Below, piece after piece: positions 11,394 to 62,567 of a stretch of 64,000 nucleotides of DNA. The position numbers were made by a program, and so were the translations under genes. Each line of letters opens with the position of its first letter. The stretch's first letter is position 1. A model generated the notes under the pieces. It worked only from the letters and a program-made list of their open reading frames with translations. It had not been told where the DNA came from and did no database searches. This DNA comes from Candidatus Uhrbacteria bacterium CG10_big_fil_rev_8_21_14_0_10_50_16 (GTDB taxonomy: Bacteria; Patescibacteriota; Patescibacteriia; UBA9934; UBA11717), in the NCBI GenBank assembly GCA_002774875.1, contig PCYM01000001.1:1096-65095 (forward strand). The letters are read 5' to 3'.

Positions 11394-11993
11394 TTAAATA
11401 TCCCATCGGCGGCGCAGGGCATCGCCAAGCGTCACCTCGTCGGCAAATTCAAGATCCGACCCAACTGGGAGTCCACGAGCCAGACGCGTCAGGCGCAGCG
11501 GCCGATCTTTGAGGACTTTTGAGAGATACATAATGGTTGATTCACCTTCAATATCTGGGTTAAACGCGAGCACGAGCTCTGCGACGGCGGGTTCATCGTT
11601 GAGGCGCTCAAGGAGTGAAGCAATCTCAAGCGTGTCGGGCGTAATTCCCTCAATGGGCGAAAGTGTCCCACCAAGTACGTGGTAGCGGCCGTTAAATCCT
11701 GCCGCGTCGATGGTGCCAATGTCACGCGGCTGTGCTACAACGCAGATAATTGTTTTGTCGCGTCGTGGATCCAGACACGTTTCACACATCTCGGACGTTG
11801 TGTAGGTTTTACAAATGGTACAGGATTGAATGGACGATTGGAGCTCTTGCAGCGCGCGAATCATTCCCTCGATGGTCCCCTTGGGCTGTTTGAGTAAATA
11901 AAACACAAACCGGAGTGCGGTTTTGGGCCCCACTCCGGGTAAATAGGTGAACGCGTTCACCACGGTTTGGATTGGTTTTGGGTACTCGCGCAT
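11394..11993 (-). CDS. recR: recombination protein RecR
   Basis: It has a helix-hairpin-helix N-terminus (LPGVGPKTA), a C4 zinc finger (CTICKTYTTSEMCETC), and a Toprim region. Confidence 0.9.
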   Translation of the reverse strand: MREYPKPIQTVVNAFTYLPGVGPKTALRFVFYLLKQPKGTIEGMIRALQELQSSIQSCTICKTYTTSEMCETCLDPRRDKTIICVVAQPRDIGTIDAAGFNGRYHVLGGTLSPIEGITPDTLEIASLLERLNDEPAVAELVLAFNPDIEGESTIMYLSKVLKDRPLRLTRLARGLPVGSDLEFADEVTLGDALRRRWDI

Positions 11994-12280: not shown

Positions 12281-12450
12281 AGGGATTGGTTACAAATTGC
12301 GAATGAATGAGGGACGGTCTGAGTATACCGTATGGAGCGTGGTTTGTGGCAAACCTATGGATACGTGACGAAATTCTTTTCTCTGATTCTTTGCGTGTGT
12401 CCGCATTGCGTGTGCCATAAGACCTTCCGTCAATACTCCGCGTCGCTGCA

Positions 12451-12558
12451 GATGTGTGCCGATCGTGGCGATTCATTCTGAATCTTCGATCGGCTACACG
12501 GCTTCGCTCTACGGAAACCCTGCGTTTATGCCGGGGTCTTATTGTCGTACTCGTGATG
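12451..12558. repeat. structured repeat element, copy 1 (nested hairpins, no downstream cargo)
   Basis: By eye it is about 80% identical to 22002-22118. GCCGATCG (12459-12466) and CGATCGGC (12488-12495) flank a perfect inner hairpin GATTCA-TTC-TGAATC (12471-12485). A third segment GCCGGGG (12531-12537) can pair alternatively with the middle segment. Confidence 0.5.
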
Positions 12559-12599
12559 GACTCACGCAAAGAATCGCCGAGGAAAGAATAACCTTCATT

Positions 12600-14021
12600 T
12601 TACCCATGAGAACGGGGAAGGGGCGGCGACTCCACAGGTTTTGGTGCAGAAGCAATTGGAGGTTCCATTCTGCGTTCCAAGTTTTTGAAGTTGGCACGCG
12701 TGGCGTCAAAGAAGAGCTTTACGATACCGGTCGGCCCATTACGATGCTTGGAGATGTGGACCTCTGCGAGGTTCTTCTCCTCTGGCGACAGCTCGTCTGG
12801 CTGATAGTTCTTATCGGCTGCTTTACGGTAGATAAACATCACCACGTCGGCATCTTGTTCAATGGACCCAGATTCACGCAGGTGGGAAAGCTTTGGAATC
12901 GCCGGTTTACTCATTTCCACGGTACGCGAGAGCTGTGAGAGGGCGATAATTGGAATCTCTAGCTCGCGGGCGATTTGCTTAAGACCACGAGAGATCTCGG
13001 CCACCTCCTGCACACGGTTTTCCTTAGCACCGCGCGATTCCATGAGCTGCAAGTAGTCAATGATCACCATCCCAAGTCCGTGTTCTGACTTAAGACGGCG
13101 GCACTTAGCACGGATTTCCATGATGTTGGCCGATGCGGAGTCGTCAATATAGAGCGGCGCCTCGGACAAAACACCAAGCGCTTGCCCAATACGTGGAAAG
13201 TCGTCGTCGCGATCAGAGAGTTTGCCTGTGCGCAGTTTCCACAGGTCAATGTCTGCCTCCGCACAAATGAGTCGATCCACCAGCTGCTCCTTGCTCATTT
13301 CCAGACTAAACAGCCCCACGGGAATTTTGAGTTTTACAGATGCGTGACGTGCGAGCGAGAGGGCAAAGGCGGTCTTTCCCACAGACGGACGTGCGGCAAG
13401 AATAATAAGGTCCGCTTTTTGAAATCCGGCGAGTAGATTGTCTAACGCTACGTATCCAGACGGCACACCGCGCAATTTTCCACGTTCCTTGTGAAGGGTG
13501 TCAATGCGCTCAAACGCGTCAGCCAAAATGGAACGGATATGTGTAAACGATTGTTTGAGGTGTGTGGATGCCACGCCAAACATGGTGGACTCTGCTTGAT
13601 CCAGCACGCTGGCAATATCGTCCGTGGATTCATCAAATCCAAGTTGTGAGATTTTAGACGCCGCCGAGATAAGCCGTCGGAGCGTGGCTTTTTTTTGAAT
13701 GATGTCGCCGTAGTGCACCACGTTACTCGCCGTTGGAACGATGTTAGTGAGTTCGGCCAAGTAAGACCTGCCACCCAGGTTAGCGAGGCTTCCCATCTCA
13801 TCCAGTCGGTTACCAAGCGAGAGAAGATCAATCGGCTCATGCTTTGCGTAGAGGTCAATCATTCCACCGTAGATTTTGCGGTGCTTTTCAAAATAGAATT
13901 GCTCGGGATCCACGTGATCAGCAACCTTAATAATCGCCTCTGGATCAATCAAAAGCGCGCCCAAAAACGATTGTTCGGCTTCTTCGTTATGCGGAGGAAC
14001 TTTGTTGATCTCGCTGGCCAT
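12600..14021 (-). CDS. dnaB: replicative DNA helicase DnaB
   Basis: The N-terminal domain (EAEQSFLGALLIDPEAI), Walker A (ARPSVGKTAFAL) and other RecA-fold motifs are present. Confidence 0.9.
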   Translation of the reverse strand: MASEINKVPPHNEEAEQSFLGALLIDPEAIIKVADHVDPEQFYFEKHRKIYGGMIDLYAKHEPIDLLSLGNRLDEMGSLANLGGRSYLAELTNIVPTASNVVHYGDIIQKKATLRRLISAASKISQLGFDESTDDIASVLDQAESTMFGVASTHLKQSFTHIRSILADAFERIDTLHKERGKLRGVPSGYVALDNLLAGFQKADLIILAARPSVGKTAFALSLARHASVKLKIPVGLFSLEMSKEQLVDRLICAEADIDLWKLRTGKLSDRDDDFPRIGQALGVLSEAPLYIDDSASANIMEIRAKCRRLKSEHGLGMVIIDYLQLMESRGAKENRVQEVAEISRGLKQIARELEIPIIALSQLSRTVEMSKPAIPKLSHLRESGSIEQDADVVMFIYRKAADKNYQPDELSPEEKNLAEVHISKHRNGPTGIVKLFFDATRANFKNLERRMEPPIASAPKPVESPPLPRSHG

Positions 14022-21877: not shown

Positions 21878-21912
21878 TAAAACACCCGTCTGTGGATGGG
21901 TGTTTTTGTTTT
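21878..21912 (+). terminator. rho-independent terminator after hpf
   Basis: The sequence is AACACCCGTC-TGTGGA-TGGGTGTTTTTGTTTT. Confidence 0.55.
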
Positions 21913-22001
21913 ACAGGCTTGCCTGCAAGCTCTCCTGGTCGTCATTGCGCGTTTCACGAAGCAATCTATTTATTCTTTCTCCCTCCTTTTTGTTTCGCCA
22001 A

Positions 22002-22118
22002 AGATGTGTGCCAATTGTGGCGATTCATGTTGAATCTTCAATTGGCTACACGGCTTCGCTCTACAGAAGGGCTTCGTTTATGCCAAGGTCTGTACGGCGT
22101 ACTCGTGGGGACACGCTG
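22002..22118. repeat. structured repeat element, copy 2 (followed by a GC-rich small ORF)
   Basis: It has the same architecture as copy 1, but both 6-nt palindromes changed concordantly (CGATCG to CAATTG) and the third pairing segment co-varies (GCCGGGG to GCCAAGG). Confidence 0.5.
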
Positions 22119-22187
22119 AGGGACGACTACAACACCGGGGACCCCGATTCCGTCCGCGTGCGCTTTACGTACGCCGGACGTGCCTAT

Positions 22188-22409
22188 CGGATGTGGAGTC
22201 TCCCGGGTAGGCTCTCCGTTTGGGAGGGGAAGGGCACTTACACGGACACGGGACCTACCGGCTGCATCAACTCCGCCGTGTCCGACGTGGGTGTCATGAA
22301 GTGGCTAGATCACGAGGAGCCGGATGAAATCCCGGAGACCCAGCCGGAGTGGCAGGTTCGCTGCAAGGTGGCGATCGAGAGCCTGGCCGCCGTCCTCGGC
22401 GTCCGCTGA
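22188..22409 (+). CDS. possible small GC-rich cargo ORF downstream of repeat copy 2
   Basis: This is the C-terminal part of track ORF 21900..22409, from MWSLPGRLSVWEGKG onward. It is about 63% GC in a 50% GC background, and a terminator-like hairpin follows at about 22425-22460. The start is uncertain. Confidence 0.25.
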   Translation, partial: RMWSLPGRLSVWEGKGTYTDTGPTGCINSAVSDVGVMKWLDHEEPDEIPETQPEWQVRCKVAIESLAAVLGVR

Positions 22410-22505
22410 ACTGCCGCCTGAAGGCGCGACCGCAAAGGTCGTCTGCCTACAGGCGGCCTTTGTGTTATTGACCAAAATGCTCCTTTGACCTACAATCTCG
22501 GCATT

Positions 22506-25175
22506 ATGGCACACTTTTTAGATCGATTTTTAACGGATTCCAGTAAGAAAACACTCAAGTACTATCAACAGAGTGTGGATGCAGTCAATGCGCTTGCAGA
22601 CAGCTACCGTGGGTTATCGGATGCAGAGTTAAAGGAGAAAACCGTGAGTTTTAAAGCGCGCTTGGCGGAAGGCGTTTTGATTGACGATTTGCTCGTAGAG
22701 GCGTTTGCCACAGCCCGTGAAGCGGCACAGCGAACCTTGGGACAATATCATTACGATGTGCAGTTGTTGGGAGGGATGGCGCTGCATCATCACAACATTG
22801 CCGAGATGCGCACAGGAGAAGGAAAGACACTTACCTCAACACTCCCAGTTTATTTGAATGCATTGGAGGGAAAAGGTGTGCACGTGGCAACCGTTAACGA
22901 CTACCTGTCCATGCGAGATGCTGCATGGATGGGTGAAGTGTTTGATTTCCTGGGATTGTCCGTGGGAGTCATTTCTCACGAAGGTGGCTTTGTGTACGAC
23001 AAATCGATCGTGCAGGATGAAGTAGTGGAAGACGCCGATCGAGATGTTACGGGAAGTTTTAAAGTTCACCATGATTATTTGCGACCTGTGGCGCGTGCAG
23101 ATGCCTATGCGGCGGACATCACCTACGGCACCAACAATGAGTTCGGATTTGACTATCTGCGCGACAACATGGTGCAGAATCCGGATCAGCGCGTGCAACG
23201 TCCCCTTAACTATTGTTTGATTGACGAGGTGGACTCTATTTTGATTGACGAGGCACGCACGCCATTGATTATCTCTGCGCCGTCTCAAACGTCCAGTGCC
23301 ATGTACCAACAATTTGCACAGGTGGTGCGATTGTTAAAGTTGGACGTGGATTATAATATTGACGAGAAAATGAAAGTCTCTACACTTACGGAGGCTGGAA
23401 TTGAGAAAGTGGAGAAAGCTCTTGGTCTTGCAAACCTCTATGCCGACGGTGGTGTGCACTTGGTGCATCATTTGGAGCAGGCGCTGCGGGCGGAGGTGTT
23501 GTATAAGCGTGATAAAGAATACGTGGTACGCGAAGGAGAGATTGTGATTGTGGATGAATTTACGGGTCGTATGATGGAGGGACGTCGTTTTTCGGAAGGA
23601 CTCCATCAGGCGATCGAGGCGAAAGAAGGTGTGGAGGTACAACAAGAAAGTCAGACATTGGCCACCATTACGTTCCAAAACTATTTCCGCATGTATTCGC
23701 GATTGGCGGGCATGACGGGAACGGCCAAGACAGAGGAGGAAGAGTTTCAAAAGATTTATGATTTGAACGTGATCGTGATACCAACCAATAAGGTCATAGC
23801 CCGTAATGACCATGAAGACAAAATTTACAAGTCAGAGGCTGGTAAGATTCAGGCTATTGTAAAGGACGTTAAAACGCGGCAGGCCCTGGGGCAGCCAGTG
23901 CTCATTGGTACCATTTCTATTGAGAAGAACGAAGAGATGTCGCAGGCACTTTCCAAGGCGGGTGTGCCGCATGAGGCGTTGAACGCAAAAAACCACGAAC
24001 GAGAAGGGTCGATTGTTGCACAAGCAGGGCGCAAAGGTTCCGTGACGGTGGCCACCAACATGGCGGGTCGTGGTGTGGATATAAAGTTGGGAGGCGTTCC
24101 GGCAACAAAGCAAGAATATGAGGAAGTTCTCGCGTTAGGTGGTTTGTATGTGGTGGGAACGGAGCGTCACGAGGCACGTCGGATTGACAATCAGCTCCGT
24201 GGACGATCTGGCCGTCAGGGCGATGTTGGAGAAACGCAGTTCTTTGTATCGACCGAGGACGACCTTATGCGTGTGTTTGGATCTGATCGCATGAAGAACA
24301 TGATGGAGCGATTGGGCGTCCCTGAGGATATGCCGATTGAGAATAAAGTTATTACAAAAGCGTTGGAAGGGGCACAAAAGAAGGTGGAGGGTCACAACTT
24401 TGACATTCGCAAACGTTTGTTGGATTACGACGATATCCTCAATAAACAGCGTTCTGTGACCTATGAAATTCGTAACGAGATTGTAGACATTAATACAACG
24501 GAGGAGCCAGAGGCGGCACGTCCGATGATTTTGGATCACATTACGGAAGAGATCGAGAATGTTGTGTCGTTCCATACGGCAGACGGAACGGATTGGAATG
24601 TAAAGGAGATTTTTGAAACCATGCAGACCATTGTGCCGGTTCCGGAGGAGTTAAAGGAACGTTTTACGGCATATAATGGTATTGGTGCACCGAAGGCTGC
24701 GCAGGCCGCAGTGGTGCGCACGGAGTTGATTGAAACATTGGAGGGCCAGGCGCAGATAGCGTACAAGGATCTCGAGGGATTGTTTGCGGAGCGTTCCCAA
24801 CTTGCAACGGTGGAGAAGCAGTTGTTATTGCGATCGATCGACATGTTGTGGGTGGAACATCTAACCGCGATGCGTAAATTGCGCAGTGGTGTTGGGTTGA
24901 GTGGCTATGCACAGCGTGATCCGTTGGTGGAGTACAAGCGTGAGAGCTTTGCTATGTACCAGGTGATGCTGTCAGAGGTGCAAAAACAGGTGGTGTACTC
25001 CATTTTTAAGGTAAAGGATGCCATGCGGATTGCCCATACGCCGTCCTTGGCAGAGCGCGCAAAGATTAGCGAGGCTATAAAGGCAGGCGTGAGTAATCAT
25101 CAAAAACCAGGACGTAACGACGCGTGTCCGTGTGGATCGGGGAAGAAGTACAAAAAGTGCCATGGAATGGAATAA
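22506..25175 (+). CDS. secA: preprotein translocase ATPase SecA
   Basis: It has the DEAD-like motor motifs (MRTGEGKTLTSTLP, LIDEVDSILIDEARTPLIIS) and the C-terminal zinc finger CPCGSGKKYKKCHG. The start is taken at MAHFLDRFL. Confidence 0.9.
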   Translation: MAHFLDRFLTDSSKKTLKYYQQSVDAVNALADSYRGLSDAELKEKTVSFKARLAEGVLIDDLLVEAFATAREAAQRTLGQYHYDVQLLGGMALHHHNIAEMRTGEGKTLTSTLPVYLNALEGKGVHVATVNDYLSMRDAAWMGEVFDFLGLSVGVISHEGGFVYDKSIVQDEVVEDADRDVTGSFKVHHDYLRPVARADAYAADITYGTNNEFGFDYLRDNMVQNPDQRVQRPLNYCLIDEVDSILIDEARTPLIISAPSQTSSAMYQQFAQVVRLLKLDVDYNIDEKMKVSTLTEAGIEKVEKALGLANLYADGGVHLVHHLEQALRAEVLYKRDKEYVVREGEIVIVDEFTGRMMEGRRFSEGLHQAIEAKEGVEVQQESQTLATITFQNYFRMYSRLAGMTGTAKTEEEEFQKIYDLNVIVIPTNKVIARNDHEDKIYKSEAGKIQAIVKDVKTRQALGQPVLIGTISIEKNEEMSQALSKAGVPHEALNAKNHEREGSIVAQAGRKGSVTVATNMAGRGVDIKLGGVPATKQEYEEVLALGGLYVVGTERHEARRIDNQLRGRSGRQGDVGETQFFVSTEDDLMRVFGSDRMKNMMERLGVPEDMPIENKVITKALEGAQKKVEGHNFDIRKRLLDYDDILNKQRSVTYEIRNEIVDINTTEEPEAARPMILDHITEEIENVVSFHTADGTDWNVKEIFETMQTIVPVPEELKERFTAYNGIGAPKAAQAAVVRTELIETLEGQAQIAYKDLEGLFAERSQLATVEKQLLLRSIDMLWVEHLTAMRKLRSGVGLSGYAQRDPLVEYKRESFAMYQVMLSEVQKQVVYSIFKVKDAMRIAHTPSLAERAKISEAIKAGVSNHQKPGRNDACPCGSGKKYKKCHGME

Positions 25176-29872: not shown

Positions 29873-31414
29873 ATGTTTGAAATTGTGACTGATTTTTCGT
29901 CTTTGCAACGCATGGCGGTGACGCGGCCCGACGTGCTACTTTTGTATATCCTGATGCCAATTGGCGCGTTACTTATTTTAACGACGATTGTATGGGTGAT
30001 TAAGCAATTGTATTTGGATAAAAAAGGAGGAGAATACGCCGCCGGACTTAAGTGGTCTGTTTTGGCAATCGACATTCCAATGAACATGCAGTCGCCAAAA
30101 GCGGTGGAAAACATCTTTGCGATTGTTAAGGGAACAAAGTCCGTGGTTACAAAGAAAGAGGAGTGGCTGCATGGGAAATTTCTCACGGCGACAAGTTTTG
30201 AAATCGTGAGTATCGATGGCTATACACAATTCTTTTTGCGCACGCAGGCGCGGTTCCGTGATCATTTGGAAGCCGGAATTTACTCGCAATATCCGGAGGC
30301 GGAGATTTCCGAGGTGGAGGATTATACAAAGAATATTCCAGGTGATTTTCCAAACGAGACACATGAAATGTTTGGAGGGGAGATTATTTTGGAGGAGCCG
30401 AGCTATTTGCCGATTCGTACTTACGAAGATTTTGAGCACATGGCGAGCAAGGATGAAAAACTCAAGGATCCACTCAATCAAATGTTTGAGTTCATGGGAA
30501 AGTTGCGACCAGGAGAGCAGTTCTGGGTTCATCTGATTGTGCACCCAGGTGGCGACGGCGGGTGGTCTAAAAAGGGAGAAGATTTTATTTTAAAAACCTA
30601 TGGACGAGATAAGCCGGAAGCGGTCTCCACGGGCTCTGTATTGTTAAAGTTGTTGTTCTCGCCATTTGGTTGGATCATCAAAGAAGCGGCAACACAACTA
30701 GGCGCAGGCGTTTTTGAAGCGGGAGAGGCTGCAAAGCCTGAACGTCCAATGTTTTTTGTGCCGACGAACACAGAAAAAACCCAGCTTGATGGTGTGACCA
30801 AAAAACTCGCAAAACCAGGGTATGAATGTAAGATTCGTTGGGCCTATGTGTCACGGCACGAGACGTACAATAAGGGTGGTCGTAACACGCTTTGGAAAGG
30901 GTACCTCGCATTGTTTACGCATCCAGCGATGAATAAGTTTAAATACGATGCAGACACCATGCCACGTGACGATTATTTTTGGATGATTTGGGAGTATCGA
31001 CGTAAGCAACGAGAACTCATGGAAGCCCTAAAGGGTCGTAGCTGGGGTCATGGAAGTACGCCAATGTATTTGAATGTGGAGGAATTAGCGACCCTGTGGC
31101 ACTTCCCAACAATCGAATCACATGCACCTCTTATGGCGCGTACGGAGTCTAAACGATCCGAGGCGCCAACCTATTTGCCAAAACCTGGCGTTGGGGAATC
31201 GGAAGATTTGCCATCTGAGGAGTTGATCGAGGTTGATGAGCAAGGAAGACCCGTTGCAAGACCTGTTGATGTCGGCGCAATTTACAATAACGATCTTGCG
31301 GATATTTTGCCCACCGAGCCCATGATTGAACCTGGAGATGAGAATCAACCTCGCGACACGGATGAGACCTATGGAGAGGAGCAACCGTTTATCCCGCCCA
31401 ACCTTCCTGTGTAA
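29873..31414 (+). CDS. hypothetical protein with a single N-terminal TM anchor and a large soluble domain of unknown function
   Basis: The hydrophobic segment is LLLYILMPIGALLILTTIVWVI. The roughly 470 aa soluble part carries no motif I recognise, and its C-terminus is acidic. The gene lies 33 nt upstream of the T4CP-like ATPase on the same strand. Confidence 0.5.
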   Translation: MFEIVTDFSSLQRMAVTRPDVLLLYILMPIGALLILTTIVWVIKQLYLDKKGGEYAAGLKWSVLAIDIPMNMQSPKAVENIFAIVKGTKSVVTKKEEWLHGKFLTATSFEIVSIDGYTQFFLRTQARFRDHLEAGIYSQYPEAEISEVEDYTKNIPGDFPNETHEMFGGEIILEEPSYLPIRTYEDFEHMASKDEKLKDPLNQMFEFMGKLRPGEQFWVHLIVHPGGDGGWSKKGEDFILKTYGRDKPEAVSTGSVLLKLLFSPFGWIIKEAATQLGAGVFEAGEAAKPERPMFFVPTNTEKTQLDGVTKKLAKPGYECKIRWAYVSRHETYNKGGRNTLWKGYLALFTHPAMNKFKYDADTMPRDDYFWMIWEYRRKQRELMEALKGRSWGHGSTPMYLNVEELATLWHFPTIESHAPLMARTESKRSEAPTYLPKPGVGESEDLPSEELIEVDEQGRPVARPVDVGAIYNNDLADILPTEPMIEPGDENQPRDTDETYGEEQPFIPPNLPV

Positions 31415-31447
31415 TTATTGACCGCACGTCCTTAACCGTCTACCTCT

Positions 31448-33535
31448 ATGGCTCGTATCCACGACCATGAAAATGAAATCACCTACTTCGCTAAAACCAA
31501 CTTTCGACAAGGTGGTCAGAAGTTTGGGATTAAAACGGACGATCGACGCCGGCACATGTATATTGTTGGAAAAACCGGTGCTGGTAAAACAACACTTTTG
31601 GAGAACATGGTGTTGCAAGACATTTATAACGGGCACGGGATTTGCTATGTGGATCCGCATGGAGATACGGTGGAGCGTATTCTTGATTTTATTCCAAGCT
31701 GGCGTTTGAATGATGTTGTGTACTTTAACCCGGCGGATTTGGATTTTCCGGTTGGGTTTAACGTGTTAGATGAAGTGTCTGGAAGCCACAAACATCTTGT
31801 CGCCTCTGGTTTGATGAGTGTGTTTAAGAAGATTTGGGAGAACATGTGGTCGGCTCGTATGGAGTATATTCTGGGCAATACGATTTTAGCCTTGTTGGAT
31901 ACCCCAGGCTCTACGTTGTTGGGTATTAACCGTATGTATTCCGATCCGGACTATCGAAGGTCCATTATTGAAAATATCAAGGACCCTGTGGTCAAACAGT
32001 TCTGGGTCATGGAGTATGCGGCATATTCAGAGAAATTTGCAACAGAGGCGGTGGCGGCCGTGCAAAACAAGGTAGGTCAGTTTTTGTCGTCCGACGTGAT
32101 TCGCAATATCGTTGCACAGGTTAAATCGACGATTGACGTGCGAGAAATCATGGATTCGCAGAAAATTTTGCTGGTCAACTTGTCTAAGGGGCGTATTGGA
32201 GAGGATAATTCGCGTTTGCTTGGCGGAATGTTGATCAATAAGGTACAGCTAGCGGCCATGGAACGTGTGGACATGCCAGAGAAAGATCGAAAAGATTTCT
32301 ATTTGTACGTAGATGAGTTTCAAAACTTTGCAACGGAATCATTCGCCGGAATTTTGTCCGAGGCGCGTAAATATCGACTCAATCTAATCGTCGCACACCA
32401 ATATATTGCACAGTTAACGGAGGAGGTACGAGATGCCGTGTTGGGTAACGTTGGCACGATGACGGTGTTTCGTGTGGGTGCACCAGACGCGCAGGAGCTA
32501 GAGACAGAATTCATGCCACGATTTACGCCGGAGGATATTATTAACCTGCCAAAATACCAAGTGTATTTAAAATTGATGATCGACGGAATGGCGTCTCCTC
32601 CATTCTCTGCGACCACGCTTCCGCCGATCGCACAGAATACGGGATCAGAAGCAAAAGTTATACGGATGAGTCGTGAGCGTTATTCGGCTGATCGGTCTGA
32701 GGTGGAGGCTGGTGTGATTAAATGGACTGGTTTGGAGGATGCAGATATTGATCAACTCATGGACCAGGCAAAGGCAAAAGGGTCCGGAAATCAGGCGAAG
32801 GTCAAACATAAATACAAATGTTCTTGGACAGGAAAAGAGTTTTCGATTCCAGTGAAGTTGGATCGCGGACGGCCAATTTACAGTGAGGAAGGAAAAGAGA
32901 TGGTGCGAGCGGCCAAGAAGGACGGTACATACGATCCTCGCAAGGATATTATTTACAGTGATACTCTGGAGCCCATCGGATCGGTTGCAGAATTGGGAAC
33001 GGATGGTTTGTGGGCGGTACGCAATGAGGAAGGGGACATTATTGGTCGCAAAGATGAGGATAGTACAAAACGCGATCGTAGGGCGGCTAAGGAGACCGAA
33101 AAACAGGAGTTAGAAGTAAAACTTGCTAAGGCGCGTGAGGAAATGAAGGAGTCTGGAGCACCAGCGGCGAGTGTAGAGGTAGCACCGACTCCAAAACCTG
33201 CAAACGTAGAGTCTCCAAAAGTGGAGCGTCCTGCACCGCGCCTACAGGAAGAGGTAAAGTCTGTCGTTGGGGCCTCGTTGAATGTTCTCAAGCAAGAAGG
33301 TGAGCGGCGTGAGGGCGAGAAGCGTAAACGCAGAAGGAAAAAGCCAACACAAGATGGAGGAGGCGATCGTGGAGGTTCTCGATCACGTTCCAATCCATCG
33401 AGGTCGACAGACACACCCAGAGATCAGCAACCCGTCATACGACAGCCGGCTGCAGATGTTCAACCAAAAACAGAGCCAGATACAAAGGCAAGGCCTATTA
33501 AACCTGGTGAGATGATCACGTTTGGGGAGGAATAA
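31448..33535 (+). CDS. type IV coupling protein (VirD4/TraG/TraD)-like P-loop ATPase, lacking a TM anchor, with a long KE/RGG-rich low-complexity tail
   Basis: It has Walker A (YIVGKTGAGKTT), a DEF-type Walker B (FYLYVDEFQNFAT), and a conserved LIVAHQYIAQL block as in T4CP NTP-binding domains. The C-terminal 260 aa are Lys/Glu/Arg/Gly-rich. Confidence 0.6.
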   Translation: MARIHDHENEITYFAKTNFRQGGQKFGIKTDDRRRHMYIVGKTGAGKTTLLENMVLQDIYNGHGICYVDPHGDTVERILDFIPSWRLNDVVYFNPADLDFPVGFNVLDEVSGSHKHLVASGLMSVFKKIWENMWSARMEYILGNTILALLDTPGSTLLGINRMYSDPDYRRSIIENIKDPVVKQFWVMEYAAYSEKFATEAVAAVQNKVGQFLSSDVIRNIVAQVKSTIDVREIMDSQKILLVNLSKGRIGEDNSRLLGGMLINKVQLAAMERVDMPEKDRKDFYLYVDEFQNFATESFAGILSEARKYRLNLIVAHQYIAQLTEEVRDAVLGNVGTMTVFRVGAPDAQELETEFMPRFTPEDIINLPKYQVYLKLMIDGMASPPFSATTLPPIAQNTGSEAKVIRMSRERYSADRSEVEAGVIKWTGLEDADIDQLMDQAKAKGSGNQAKVKHKYKCSWTGKEFSIPVKLDRGRPIYSEEGKEMVRAAKKDGTYDPRKDIIYSDTLEPIGSVAELGTDGLWAVRNEEGDIIGRKDEDSTKRDRRAAKETEKQELEVKLAKAREEMKESGAPAASVEVAPTPKPANVESPKVERPAPRLQEEVKSVVGASLNVLKQEGERREGEKRKRRRKKPTQDGGGDRGGSRSRSNPSRSTDTPRDQQPVIRQPAADVQPKTEPDTKARPIKPGEMITFGEE

Positions 33536-52345: not shown

Positions 52346-52585
52346 AGTTTTACATTCTTGAAACCAAGAACCAAAAATTAAAATTAATTTGGCGATATTT
52401 TGCTACCGCAAAATTAAAAAACTTTTCATTACATCGCACAACGTGCCGCGGCACGTTAGCCAACGAGCAAAGCGATGTTGGCTAACATTCCAACATATAC
52501 AATATCTAAACAGGGTAAAATGTACACGAAGTGCTTACCACTGGCAAACATGGGTGGAGGCATGCGGAGGTACGGAGCAAGCCGT

Positions 52586-52640
52586 AACCGCATACGCAGT
52601 GTTAGTTGATGTATTCCTTTTCTTTTGTTCCGCCATCGGT
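52586..52640. repeat. copy of the terminator/promoter module repeat (family also at 60936-61006 and 62350-62472)
   Basis: A shared core ...CAGTGTTAG(T/C)TGATGTATTCCTTTTCTTTTGTTCCGCCATCGG... is present, containing a short GC hairpin. Confidence 0.5.
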
Positions 52641-52831: not shown

Positions 52832-53506
52832 ATGAAACTCTTAGTGGTGGAAGACGAACCAAAACTCAATAAAGGCCTAGTAACGGGTCTGCAGGCGCGG
52901 GGATATACCGTAGAATCGGCGATGGACGGCGTGGAGGGCGAGCAACTCGCGCGTGTGGAGGGGTATGATCTTATTGTGTTAGACGTCATGCTGCCCGGTC
53001 GCGATGGGTTAGAGGTGTGCAGAAATCTCCGCGGGTACGGCATCCAAACGCCTATTTTATTCCTTACGGCACGTGACACAGTACCAGATAAGGTGGCGGG
53101 ATTGGATTTGGGAGGAGACGACTACTTAGCAAAACCTTTTGCGTTTGAAGAGTTACTGGCGCGTGTTCGCACCTTGCTACGTCGACCCAAGCAAGCCACA
53201 CAGGACGTGCTTGTGTTGGAAGATTTACAGGTCGACACACGATCACAAAAAGTGCGCATTAAAGACAAGGAGATCGACCTTACGCTGCGCGAGTACGGTG
53301 TGTTGGAATATCTCCTGCGTAATAAGGGGTTGGTGGTCACGCGTGAAGACATTTTGTCGCATGTGTGGGATCGTTTCTTCGATTCATTTAGTAACGTGGT
53401 AGACGTCCATGTTAAAAACCTTCGCAAAAAATTACCAAAAGCGTATGCAAAACGGATTGAAACCGTTTGGGGAAAGGGGTATCGGATTGCTGAGCCCGCT
53501 GTTTAG
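52832..53506 (+). CDS. OmpR-family two-component response regulator
   Basis: The receiver domain (KLLVVEDEPKL...DLIVLDVMLPGRDG) is followed by a winged-helix trans_reg_C domain (VW...). Confidence 0.85.
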   Translation: MKLLVVEDEPKLNKGLVTGLQARGYTVESAMDGVEGEQLARVEGYDLIVLDVMLPGRDGLEVCRNLRGYGIQTPILFLTARDTVPDKVAGLDLGGDDYLAKPFAFEELLARVRTLLRRPKQATQDVLVLEDLQVDTRSQKVRIKDKEIDLTLREYGVLEYLLRNKGLVVTREDILSHVWDRFFDSFSNVVDVHVKNLRKKLPKAYAKRIETVWGKGYRIAEPAV

Positions 53507-60057: not shown

Positions 60058-60303
60058 ATGTACACTGTGTATGTTTTGCGAAGTCTTACATCCGGGAAAC
60101 GATATATTGGTTATACGGCAAAGGCTGTTCAAGAAAGACTCTTGGACCACCATAGCGGTACGAATCAATGGACAAGGGCTCACAGACCCTTTGAAATAAT
60201 TCATTGCGAAACGTACCAGGACAAGAAATTCGCCATACAACGTGAACGCTTTTTAAAAAGTGGAAGCGGAAGGCGGTGGTTGGACGACAACATTCCGAGG
60301 TAG
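60058..60303 (+). CDS. GIY-YIG nuclease-domain protein (small stand-alone URI-domain type)
   Basis: YTVYVLRSLTSGKRYIGYT...RLLDHHSG...W.R...PFEIIHCETY...A...ER.LK matches the GIY-YIG fold. Its stop overlaps the first nucleotides of tRNA-Asn. Confidence 0.65.
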   Translation: MYTVYVLRSLTSGKRYIGYTAKAVQERLLDHHSGTNQWTRAHRPFEIIHCETYQDKKFAIQRERFLKSGSGRRWLDDNIPR

Positions 60304-60368
60304 CTCAGTGGTAGAGCAGTTGACTGTTAATCAATTGGTCGTGGGTTCGAGCCCCACCCTCGGAGCCA
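60294..60368 (+). tRNA. tRNA-Asn (anticodon GTT)
   Basis: The cloverleaf folds by hand. The acceptor is TCCGAGG/CCTCGGA, the D stem GCTC/GAGC, the anticodon loop CTGTTAA, and the T arm GTGGG-TTCGAGC-CCCAC. CCA is encoded. Confidence 0.85.
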
Positions 60369-60465: not shown

Positions 60466-61056
60466 ATGTCTGAACACCCTGAAAGAGCTCCTGACATTGT
60501 TCGGGAACAAAGTAAGAAGGAACGGTACGAACTCACTTCGGCCAACGGTGAAGTTATCGGATCTGTGGAAGCAGAATATGGGACTATATTGGGTGATGAT
60601 ATCGATTTGACTTATAATGCCCACGCTTTTGACGATCCATCAAATATTGTGAGGTTGCAGCGCCTGACAGTTGAGTCCGCTGATGGAGACAAGGTGGATA
60701 TTTTTGACCTCCTTAAAGCTGATACGAGCAAGGTTTTAATAATCAATGACTATAAATATGTCGAATGTTCTCACGAGGGAGTTGTGTATATAGTCAAGCC
60801 GAGCTCATTATTGCGACTATTGACAACTCTTCATGAACTTGGTCATTTGGAGCAAATAGTTGATGAGAAAACCGCTTCCGCAATAGAGATGCGAAAACTA
60901 AATGCGACGCAAGTAGGGTTGGTGGAGAAGAACGAGTTAGCTGATGTATTCCTTTTCTTTTTTGGGCTATCGCCCAATTGTTTTAAAAAATTTTCAAATT
61001 TCTTTTCGCAGCACATCCCGATAAAAAGAAGAGCCGCCCACCAGATGAGCCAGTAG
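60466..61056 (+). CDS. hypothetical protein with an HExxH (HELGH) motif, possibly an ImmA/IrrE-like metallopeptidase
   Basis: It is AT-rich and contains LTTLHELGHLEQ. The last 40 or so codons are encoded by repeat sequences (60936-61073), so the true C-terminus is doubtful. Confidence 0.35.
   Translation: MSEHPERAPDIVREQSKKERYELTSANGEVIGSVEAEYGTILGDDIDLTYNAHAFDDPSNIVRLQRLTVESADGDKVDIFDLLKADTSKVLIINDYKYVECSHEGVVYIVKPSSLLRLLTTLHELGHLEQIVDEKTASAIEMRKLNATQVGLVEKNELADVFLFFFGLSPNCFKKFSNFFSQHIPIKRRAAHQMSQ
60936..61006. repeat. terminator/promoter module repeat, copy A
   Basis: The sequence is GTTAGCTGATGTATTCCTTTTCTTTTTTGGGCTATCGCCCAATTGTTTTAAAAAATTTTCAAATTTCTTT. It matches 62392-62472 in inverted orientation and 52595-52640. 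Confidence 0.5.
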
Positions 61057-61073
61057 GCGGCTCGTGGTGGACG
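61028..61073 (-). terminator. conserved 46-nt hairpin terminator (minus strand), copy 1
   Basis: GCCGCCCACCA...TGGTGGACGG forms a hairpin, followed on the minus strand by TCTTCTTTTTAT. It is nearly identical to 61782-61827. Confidence 0.5.
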
Positions 61074-61084
61074 GCTAGGTTGGA

Positions 61085-61597: not shown

Positions 61598-61781
61598 TTA
61601 CACCTCCATGAGGAGACGTGAGTGTTCGGCTGTACCCGCCGTGGGTTGCGTTCCGTAAAAGGAAACGACGCTAAAATATAGTCCATTTTATAAAAGTAGT
61701 CAATAGAAGCTCGCCAAAAAAGGCATTTTTTGCGAATTTATGTACACTTGACGCACGGCGGCGGCGCGACGAAAAGAAATT

Positions 61782-61827
61782 AAGAGCCGCCCACCAGATG
61801 AGCCGGTAGACGACTCGTGGTGGGCGG
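61782..61827 (-). terminator. conserved 46-nt hairpin terminator (minus strand), copy 2
   Basis: CCGCCCACCA-N21-TGGTGGGCGG is a perfect 10-bp stem, followed on the minus strand by TCTTAATTTCTTTTCG. Confidence 0.5.
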
Positions 61828-61842
61828 TACAGATGGAGTGCT

Positions 61843-62262
61843 TCACTCCGCGAGTTCGACACTCCGAACCATGAAGGGACGGGATCCGGTGTAATGCTGT
61901 TCTGCGAGACTCGCCACCTGGCACAGCACGTTGACCCTCGTACCCTCCTGGAGCATCGCACTGGAGGGATCGCTGCCCAGATGCTTCTCGAACCGCGGAG
62001 GGTAGATCGGAGCAGGATCTCGCCAGTAAGTGAGTGCTGCCAGCGAGTCTGGATGATGCGGATGGTGTCGTCTGATGACCGCCTTGACGGTCTCCAGATC
62101 GAGCTCGACGATGATCGTGTATGTCTCCGGAATGGGTTCGAAGATCTGGAAGCCGAAGACCGAGAACCCGGATCTTGCCGGATATGTCTTCACACCGATG
62201 ATCTTCCCAGGGATGGTGACCTTCGAGCCGCTGGCCTGAGGCGCGAATCTTGGGGTCTGCAT
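61843..62262 (-). CDS. hypothetical protein (GC-rich cargo gene)
   Basis: The start is at MQTPRFAPQ, with AGGAGG 6 nt upstream. A sigma70-like promoter, TTGACT-16-TATATT, lies on the minus strand at 62323-62350. The conserved terminator follows the stop. Confidence 0.4.
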   Translation of the reverse strand: MQTPRFAPQASGSKVTIPGKIIGVKTYPARSGFSVFGFQIFEPIPETYTIIVELDLETVKAVIRRHHPHHPDSLAALTYWRDPAPIYPPRFEKHLGSDPSSAMLQEGTRVNVLCQVASLAEQHYTGSRPFMVRSVELAE

Positions 62263-62322
62263 ACGACCTCCTGTTCTGAATGTCACGGCTGTCCCTGCCG
62301 TAGGGGTCGAAAGCGACATTAA

Positions 62323-62350
62323 AATATACTCTATTCAGAAAAAAAGTCAA
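62323..62350 (-). promoter_or_regulatory. sigma70-like promoter (TTGACT-N16-TATATT) inside repeat copy B, driving the 61843..62262 gene
   Basis: On the minus strand the sequence reads TTGACTTTTTTTCTGAATAGAGTATATTTTA. Confidence 0.45.
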
Positions 62351-62472
62351 TGGTCGCCCAATATCTCGGACATATGTATAATGAAAGAAATTTGAAAATT
62401 TTTCAAAACAAGTCCCGCCGATGGCGGAACAAAAGAAAAGGAATACATCAGCTAACACTGGCTATGCGGTTC
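62350..62472. repeat. terminator/promoter module repeat, copy B (inverted relative to copy A)
   Basis: On the minus strand the sequence reads ...CGCATAGCCAGTGTTAGCTGATGTATTCCTTTTCTTTTGTTCCGCCATCGGCGGGACTTGTTTTGAAAAATTTTCAAATTTCTTTC..., followed by the promoter. Confidence 0.5.
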
Positions 62473-62567
62473 CGTTTCACTACACCCATATTTGCTTTCA
62501 CTTCGCTACAGCAAACATCGCATAGCCAGAAACGTTTTCAGAAGTTTCAAGACTTCAACGTCGTTAC

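Follow-up and report, generated by a model that had tools for sequence, protein, structure and literature searches.

The described repeats closest to the element reported here are the ERIC/IRU sequences of enterobacteria, small non-coding imperfect palindromes of about 127 nt that occupy intergenic positions inside or at the ends of transcription units, stand in either orientation, are present in some genomes and absent from their relatives, and fold into a long hairpin on either strand. Bacterial MITEs, such as Correia/NEMIS of Neisseria and RUP of Streptococcus pneumoniae, are also short (under about 600 bp), non-coding and insertion-polymorphic; they carry terminal inverted repeats and can give rise to gene fusions or provide neighbouring genes with expression signals. 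REPINs, the RAYT-mobilised pairs of REP sequences, are intergenic hairpins with compensatory stem changes and no target duplication, which depend on a single trans-acting enzyme, as is presumed for the element. The IS200/IS605-derived PATEs likewise bear hairpins, have an extrahelical base in the stem and leave no target duplication.

The window (the whole stretch of 64,000 nucleotides analysed here) contains two copies of an element that shares part of these properties, and a third copy is present in the closest relative. The element is probably a new low-copy, non-coding palindromic repeat that belongs with MITEs, ERIC and REPINs and is carried by a Candidatus Uhrbacteria lineage (CPR). At 163-175 nt and without coding capacity it falls within the size range of MITEs; it is longer than ERIC/IRU, to which it has no sequence relationship, and differs from them in its CPR host, in its sharp GTCC/GGAC ends and in copy number, with two plus one copies seen so far. 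Unlike MITEs, the element has yielded neither a target-site duplication nor a parent insertion sequence, and the inverted repeat outside GTCC/GGAC, clear in copy 1, is not common to all copies. REPINs are usually shorter, reach tens to hundreds of copies and have a RAYT gene in the genome, whereas PATEs carry a subterminal hairpin at either end and insert beside a fixed tetra- or pentanucleotide, in contrast to the element with its one central hairpin and no shared flanking motif. A full-text literature search found no paper on small non-autonomous repeats in CPR/Patescibacteria.

Extent and Setting of the Repeat

An earlier note, made from the letters of the window without database searches (the sequence-only reading), had pointed to two regions about 80% identical by eye. 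They are a genuine repeat: a repeat finder and alignment across the 64-kb window match 12443-12555 to 21995-22107, 113 nt without gaps at 81% identity, the sole repeat of such size in the window. The regions then described take in only the hairpin and the 3' half; the whole unit, 12399-12561 and 21938-22112, is larger. Alignment of three copies with their flanks defines this unit as an imperfect palindrome with sharp GTCC...GGAC ends, beyond which similarity ceases in all three contexts (copies 1 and 2 and the copy in the relative). The window copies and their upstream boundary at the second locus are as follows.

12399-12561, plus strand: copy 1 core, 163 nt, GTCC...GGAC, in the dnaB-ybaB spacer; 189.7 bits with model R2
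21938-22112, plus strand: copy 2 core, 175 nt; 156.4 bits with model R2
21879-21906, plus strand: hpf intrinsic terminator, at which the lineage-specific DNA around copy 2 has its upstream limit

Copy 1 is flanked by the stop codon of dnaB (minus strand, 12600-14021) and by ybaB-recR, also on the minus strand, so that its plus strand is antisense to the dnaB-ybaB-recR run, and gene callers place no gene on it. Copy 2 lies 3' of the hpf terminator and its own 3' end abuts a truncated gene remnant; its 5' half has diverged and carries a 13-nt pyrimidine-rich insertion. The source species is, by its DnaB match, Candidatus Uhrbacteria bacterium CG10_big_fil_rev_8_21_14_0_10_50_16, a CPR bacterium, and identical copies are present on all of its strain-level contigs. 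Two other origins for a repeat pair of this kind were tried and rejected. The mismatches include G->A, C->T and T->G on both strands and are not adenine-specific, unlike those of a DGR template/variable repeat pair, and core genes (dnaB, glyA, folD, murC, murB, hpf), not an island bounded by attL and attR, occupy the 9.5 kb that separates the copies.

Copy 1 is further enclosed by paired arms.

12373-12398, plus strand: outer left inverted repeat, ATTCTTTTCTCtgATTCTTTGCGTGt, pairing with 12562-12589
12562-12589, plus strand: outer right inverted repeat, tCACGCAAAGAATcgccGAGGAAAGAAT, partner of 12373-12398

The terminal inverted repeat of this copy is 17 nt long with 16 of 17 positions matched: ATTCTTTGCGTGTGTCC, at 12386-12402, is the reverse complement of 12558-12574 with one mismatch, and further arms lie outside it (outer-arm sequence ATTCTTTGCGTG). 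The rod formed by 12373-12589 (217 nt) has a minimum free energy of -96.6 kcal/mol (z -7.45), and its minus strand reaches -91.7 kcal/mol (z -6.6). GTCC/GGAC and paired outer stems occur in all copies; the longer terminal inverted repeat is clear only at copy 1, where the outer arms belong either to a longer version of the element or to a target palindrome with the core inserted at its centre.

A Central Hairpin Within a Palindromic Rod

Both window copies contain the same 46-nt hairpin, GTGT-GCCRATYG-tggc-GATTCA-nnn-TGAATC-tt-CRATYGGC-t-ACAC.

12454-12499, plus strand: copy 1 central hairpin, 4+8+6 bp; -14.2 kcal/mol with DNA parameters, z -6.5
22006-22051, plus strand: copy 2 central hairpin, CAATTG in both arms; -12.2 kcal/mol with DNA parameters, z -4.6

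In copy 1 its architecture includes a conserved 4-nt/2-nt internal loop and a bulged T, and the minus strand folds similarly (-14.7 kcal/mol, z -6.7, DNA parameters); against shuffles, z ranges from -4.6 to -6.7 on either strand with these parameters. CGATCG of copy 1 is replaced by CAATTG of copy 2 in both arms, amounting to two compensated pairs, G:C->A:T and C:G->T:A, and none of the 18 stem pairs is broken by the differences between the copies. The concerted, pairing-preserving changes claimed for this hairpin at the outset are thus real; the chance that four changes would form two exactly compensated pairs in a stem of 18 is about 1e-3 (a rough estimate of our own).

In the consensus fold the whole unit forms a single long rod with the inner loop at its centre; there are 47 pairs, and 93.6% of cells are paired. 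Twelve pairs have changed on both sides, against 4.0 +/- 1.7 in shuffles (0/500 as many) and 0-2 when partners are slid, in a fold derived from the same three sequences that were used for scoring. The opposite strand folds about equally well, and G-U counts show no consistent strand preference: plus versus minus they are 7 vs 4 in copy 1 and 7 vs 0 in copy 2, and the plus strand folds slightly better in these two copies, while in the copy of the relative the minus strand has a slight advantage (-63.0 vs -60.2 kcal/mol). Folding on both strands to about the same degree argues for a palindromic repeat of the MITE/ERIC type and against a strand-specific, riboswitch-like RNA. The two halves are about equally conserved between copy 1 and the copy in the relative (roughly 71% and 73%, by our own column count).

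Conservation of sequence extends to unpaired motifs: the GGCGATT internal loop, the bulged T and TCGCT, which occurs on both sides of the hairpin at a distance of 4-6 nt, as well as a single-stranded stretch 3' of the hairpin. Such motifs suggest recognition of the folded hairpin by a protein, acting on single-stranded DNA during mobilisation or on RNA.

The sequence-only reading went further and proposed that a third segment, GCCGGGG in copy 1 and GCCAAGG in copy 2, covaries with the second hairpin arm in a switchable structure. The segments have the sequences described, but the alternative helix is at chance level, with 339 of 500 shuffles as good. Three-way covariation is not supported, a 5-bp helix that does no better than shuffles being set against an 18-bp hairpin, and in the whole-element fold the third segment pairs instead with the 5' arm (AUAAGACC/GGUCUUAU in copy 1). 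A translational or riboswitch-like leader, in which the 3' hairpin arm would alternatively pair with GCCRRGG at a start codon and switch translation, could draw on the fact that the 5-bp helix is possible in 3/3 copies (14 of 15 cells, with one G:C->A:U exchange) and that the ATG of the ORF called at copy 2 lies inside the element. It is nonetheless highly improbable. Besides the shuffles and the stronger competing hairpin, the ATG is ATA in the third copy, where no ORF follows; copy 1 has no downstream gene, and the frame opened by its ATG runs into dnaB antisense, codon for codon; copy 2 is followed by the remnant of a truncated gene instead of a conserved partner ORF; and the minimum-energy folds 3' of the hairpin differ between copies. 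The switch-leader reading is largely refuted.

The copy 1 ATG opens a 136-codon ORF (12528-12938) opposite the 3' end of dnaB and in codon register with it; a stop in this ORF would need dnaB to use TTA, CTA or TCA. The window has further long ORFs antisense to dnaB, and this one is probably a by-product.

A Third Copy Separates Structure From Coding

A covariance model (R1) built from the two hairpin regions matches the closest relative, L033, at 12474-12544 with 48.9 bits (E 3e-12), a further copy that shows additional covariation. The full third copy, 12427-12589 of L033 (163 nt), occupies the gap between recR and rplU. It shares its strand with dnaB, in contrast to the antisense copy 1. 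In the window the recR-rplU spacer contains no copy, and neither R1 (filters off) nor R2 finds a further match in the window. The new copy keeps the hairpin by new compensatory changes, in the middle stem (GCCAACA/TGTTGGC) and in the inner stem (GATTTGA/TCAAATC), with the bulged T and the GGCGATT loop unchanged. Its different locus and orientation bear out the view that the element is independent of its neighbours.

The third copy also decides a question that the window copies leave open. A frame beginning at GTG 12456 and GTG 22008 is open in both, and all four concerted changes are synonymous third-position changes in it (CCG/CCA, ATC/ATT, TCG/TCA, ATC/ATT), third codon positions pairing with third codon positions in the hairpin stem; two copies alone therefore cannot separate coding from structure. 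The open frame and the synonymous changes are what a plain segmental duplication of a gene start or small protein would leave, with the compensation a coincidence. In the third copy, however, the frame that reads "PIVAIH" in the window gives VPTRAI and a TGA stop, ATA replaces ATG, and +2/-1 indels shift the frame, so that the translation is wholly different. No peptide is conserved across the three copies in any frame, an exhaustive protein search returns no homologue of the N-terminal 24 residues, and no gene is called at copy 1. Between the window copies a 21-nt run without synonymous change gives way to four codons in a row that all differ in amino acid (GNPA vs RRAS), and the copies occupy non-orthologous sites in two genomes. 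A duplicated gene start, to which we give almost no credence, is refuted by the third copy. By its stop codon in the shared frame, its ATA for ATG and its frame-shifting indels, this copy shows that the element is non-coding; the shared peptide PIVAIH.ESSIGYTASLY is, as had been supposed, a by-product of the nucleotide repeat.

Presence, Absence and Divergence Between Genomes

Relatives were picked by DnaB identity, 77-89% by local alignment. The closest, L033 (a TARA scaffold), has a DnaB 86-89% identical to that of the window (86% full-length). The dnaB-ybaB spacer measures 319 nt in the window against 74 in L033, 158 in L035, 21 in L036, 37 in L039 and 67 in L041, and the hpf-secA spacer 639 nt against 79 nt in L033. 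Three different gaps are thus occupied in two genomes while comparable orthologous gaps are short and lack the element; each of the three occupied spacers is short and element-free in the other genome, an insertion polymorphism. The copies stand in either orientation, in gaps that run from the end of one gene to the promoter of the next.

The copies are 76.5% (1 vs 2), 74.2% (1 vs L033) and 65.0% (2 vs L033) identical, whereas fourfold-degenerate sites of the window and L033 are 41.5% identical in dnaB, 36% in ybaB and 40.6% in recR. Copies that are not orthologous and yet lie far above neutral identity indicate that the family was active after the lineage split, or that its sequence is constrained, or both. 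No target-site duplication is adjacent to the ends in the three contexts (GCGTGT|...|TCACGC, CTCCTG|...|ACGCTG and CCATTC|...|GGTTCT), which offer no exactly alignable empty site for comparison, and no tetra- or pentanucleotide next to the ends is shared, the left flanks GTGT, CCTG and ATTC being different.

In L035, which is less closely related, a different palindromic insert (TCATTCTGAGCGGGAGTCGAAGAACCTTCG...CGAAGGTCCTTCGACAAGCTCAGGATGA, 11423-11580) occupies the same dnaB-ybaB spacer, and this gap seems to collect hairpin-forming insertions.

A Gene Remnant Fused to Copy 2

The DNA that follows copy 2 carries two features.

22080-22409, plus strand: ORF109, 109 aa, an exact match to hypothetical protein COV06_00110 of a CG10-series Candidatus Uhrbacteria bacterium
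22425-22496, plus strand: terminator-like hairpins, then a secA promoter-like site (TTGACC-17-TACAAT), bounding the remnant downstream

The element supplies the ATG and the first 11 codons of ORF109. The ORF has 65% GC against roughly 49% for the genome, and its GC1/2/3 of 0.62/0.52/0.79 is coding-like. Three distant homologues of 209-247 aa (P0122, P0123 and P0125) emerge from an exhaustive protein search, all with lipoprotein-like signal peptides and no Pfam domain; residues ~13-109 of ORF109 align only to their C-terminal domain. In L038 the gene for P0122 sits between hpf and secA, within an island of 2.1 kb that has 60-65% GC; in L048 P0123 is encoded directly between hpf (82% identical to the window hpf) and secA. 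The DNA 3' of the ORF109 stop is conserved between L048 and the window, and 22425-22496 has its orthologue in L048, in the region that follows the full-length gene. Homologues between hpf and secA together with the conserved downstream DNA mark ORF109 as the 3' part of the syntenic gene, and homology to the lipoprotein gene starts at ~22113, exactly where the repeat ends (GGAC at 22112). By homology and synteny, then, ORF109 is a 5'-truncated remnant of a syntenic lipoprotein-like gene, fused to the element.

Other views of this GC-rich ORF were dismissed. A structured RNA or a foreign insertion is at odds with the order GC3 > GC1 > GC2 and with the syntenic homologue in relatives, and the gene sits in an equally GC-rich island in L038. 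A match of 14/23 nt between the 3' end of the element and the lipoprotein gene of L048 is attributed to chance, being out of frame and the product of a forced global alignment.

The GC-rich (60-65%) lipoprotein-like segment covers 5700-7800 in L038, 447-1076 in L048 and 22113-22409 in the window, in hosts of otherwise ~50% GC. The family is patchy: it is absent in L033 and lies between rplI and rpmA in L049. The secA promoter-like site (22468-22508) ends 9 nt before the called ATG (22506), a layout conserved in L033 and L048, and the secA mRNA may be leaderless or nearly so.

Searches for Further Copies and Known Families

Across 214 kb of the source genome and relatives, models R1 and R2 find three copies only; the source genome contributes two (in ~76 kb) and a relative one (in 21 kb). 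A further ~12 kb of source-genome sequence holds no additional copy, and no transposase or parent element bearing GTCC...GGAC ends was seen in the sequence read. The only Rfam matches above the gathering score in the window are two tRNAs; a cut-off relaxed to E 10 yields nothing at copy 1, and hits near copy 2 are at chance level and do not fall on the element, which therefore matches no known family. Defining features of a 6S-like rod, attC, a group II intron domain or an IS200/IS605 end are also missing, and these candidates were set aside.

Exact-core scans returned chance matches only, from 185,579 species genomes (a collection from which the source species is absent), from IMG/VR viral contigs and from a metagenome collection; the last did not return the source organism's own copies, and these negatives carry little weight. 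BLAST against annotated phages and plasmids gave no match. A 21-mer, GGCTACACGGCTTCGCTCTAC, is found again, letter for letter, in a membrane-protein gene of gut bacteria (L010-L016), where it encodes GYTASLY as it does in the spurious frame of the element; its flanks there are unrelated, and the recurrence is a chance match.

Other Features of the Window

A second repeat family, with core GTTAGCTGATGTATTCCTTTTCTTTT, occurs at 52583-52639, 60936-60961 and 62418-62474 of the window, as a 57-nt pair (93% complementary) and a 26-nt third copy. Two of its copies lie just upstream of genes, a response regulator (52832-53506) and an ORF at 61700-62458 (minus strand); the family may be a shared promoter or leader, or another repeat. 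Downstream of tRNA-Asn (60294-60368), the segment 60900-62500 contains only orphan ORFs, and its gene calls differ between the strains (L045 and L046). It also has a 51-nt direct repeat (61024-61074 and 61777-61827, 88%) and a 28-nt inverted repeat (60978-61005 and 62384-62411), and may be a small variable island. At 29873-33535, ~8-11 kb downstream of copy 2, a gene for a DUF8128 protein is followed by one for a TrwB/VirD4-like coupling protein (PF10412; weak T4SS-DNA_transf), with no established link to the element.

Origin of the Element and Competing Explanations

As a mobile palindromic repeat, the element would have spread after the lineage split through a recombinase or transposase encoded in trans, which would recognise the folded hairpin together with its conserved unpaired bases. 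Complementarity of the stems could be kept by this recognition or by palindrome-templated repair. At the second locus, the element may have inserted into the lipoprotein-like gene, the 5' part of which would then have been deleted from the element's left end, leaving a remnant ORF that borrows the element's ATG. Transcriptional read-through would produce a long hairpin in either orientation, and the element may, like ERIC and REP elements, serve as a 3'-end or processing structure. The repeat reading draws on three copies, and conservation of the unpaired motifs fits a functional RNA equally well.

The main rival is accordingly a family of small structured RNAs, sRNA genes or 3'-UTR/leader elements, with the DNA copies as their genes; possible roles would be a stabilising or processing hairpin, or pairing of a pyrimidine-rich UCGCUCU seed with ribosome-binding sites. 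Strong covariation of the fold and conservation of the unpaired GGCGATT, bulged T and TCGCTCT are what such a family would show, as are the slightly better folding and the higher G-U counts of the plus strand in copies 1 and 2; the plus strand of two of the three copies follows the direction of the upstream gene, from which read-through could express it. This account is nevertheless unlikely. The copies have no promoter- or terminator-like site in common, and none was found at copy 1, which is antisense to an operon and lacks any upstream source of plus-strand transcription; folding of the third copy slightly favours the minus strand; the unit is palindromic as a whole, with halves of about equal conservation; Rfam offers no match at E up to 10; and position changes between close relatives. 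A single-stranded hairpin site for a recombinase, relaxase or replication protein (attC-, oriT/nic-like or an HUH target), duplicated since such sites ride on or attract mobile DNA, would overlap with the favoured explanation as regards spread. An extrahelical T and an asymmetric internal loop, features of the sort that such enzymes read in attC and IS608 hairpins, are conserved here, as is the single-stranded stretch 3' of the hairpin, and the two DNA strands are equal in their folding of it; target duplication is lacking, the truncation of a gene at copy 2 coincides exactly with the element end, and a TrwB/VirD4-like coupling protein is encoded at 31448-33535. Yet no integrase, relaxase or HUH gene stands beside any copy, the ends have no conserved tetra- or pentanucleotide in the three contexts, and the hairpin is single and central, not one of a subterminal set, and without an R'/R''-type attC core. 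Both the site itself and its duplication by this route have a slim chance of being correct.

A bolder form of mobility is quite doubtful too: the element as a structure-dependent mobile unit of a kind undescribed in CPR, or as a mobile small-RNA gene with a cellular role. In the first case, an enzyme acting in trans would read the hairpin (bulged T, GGCGATT, TCGCT) and insert the unit into the centres of palindromes or into terminator-promoter gaps.

Implications

Compensatory changes between two copies of a structured element may all be synonymous, and a diverged third copy is then needed to decide between coding and structure. ORF109, for its part, shows how some orphan "hypothetical proteins" may originate, as a truncated remnant that borrows the start codon of an element. 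The genomes of CPR bacteria are very small and compact, and a hairpin repeat that would move between intergenic gaps, keep its fold and, as at copy 2, reshape a neighbouring gene provides a small handle on how they rearrange.
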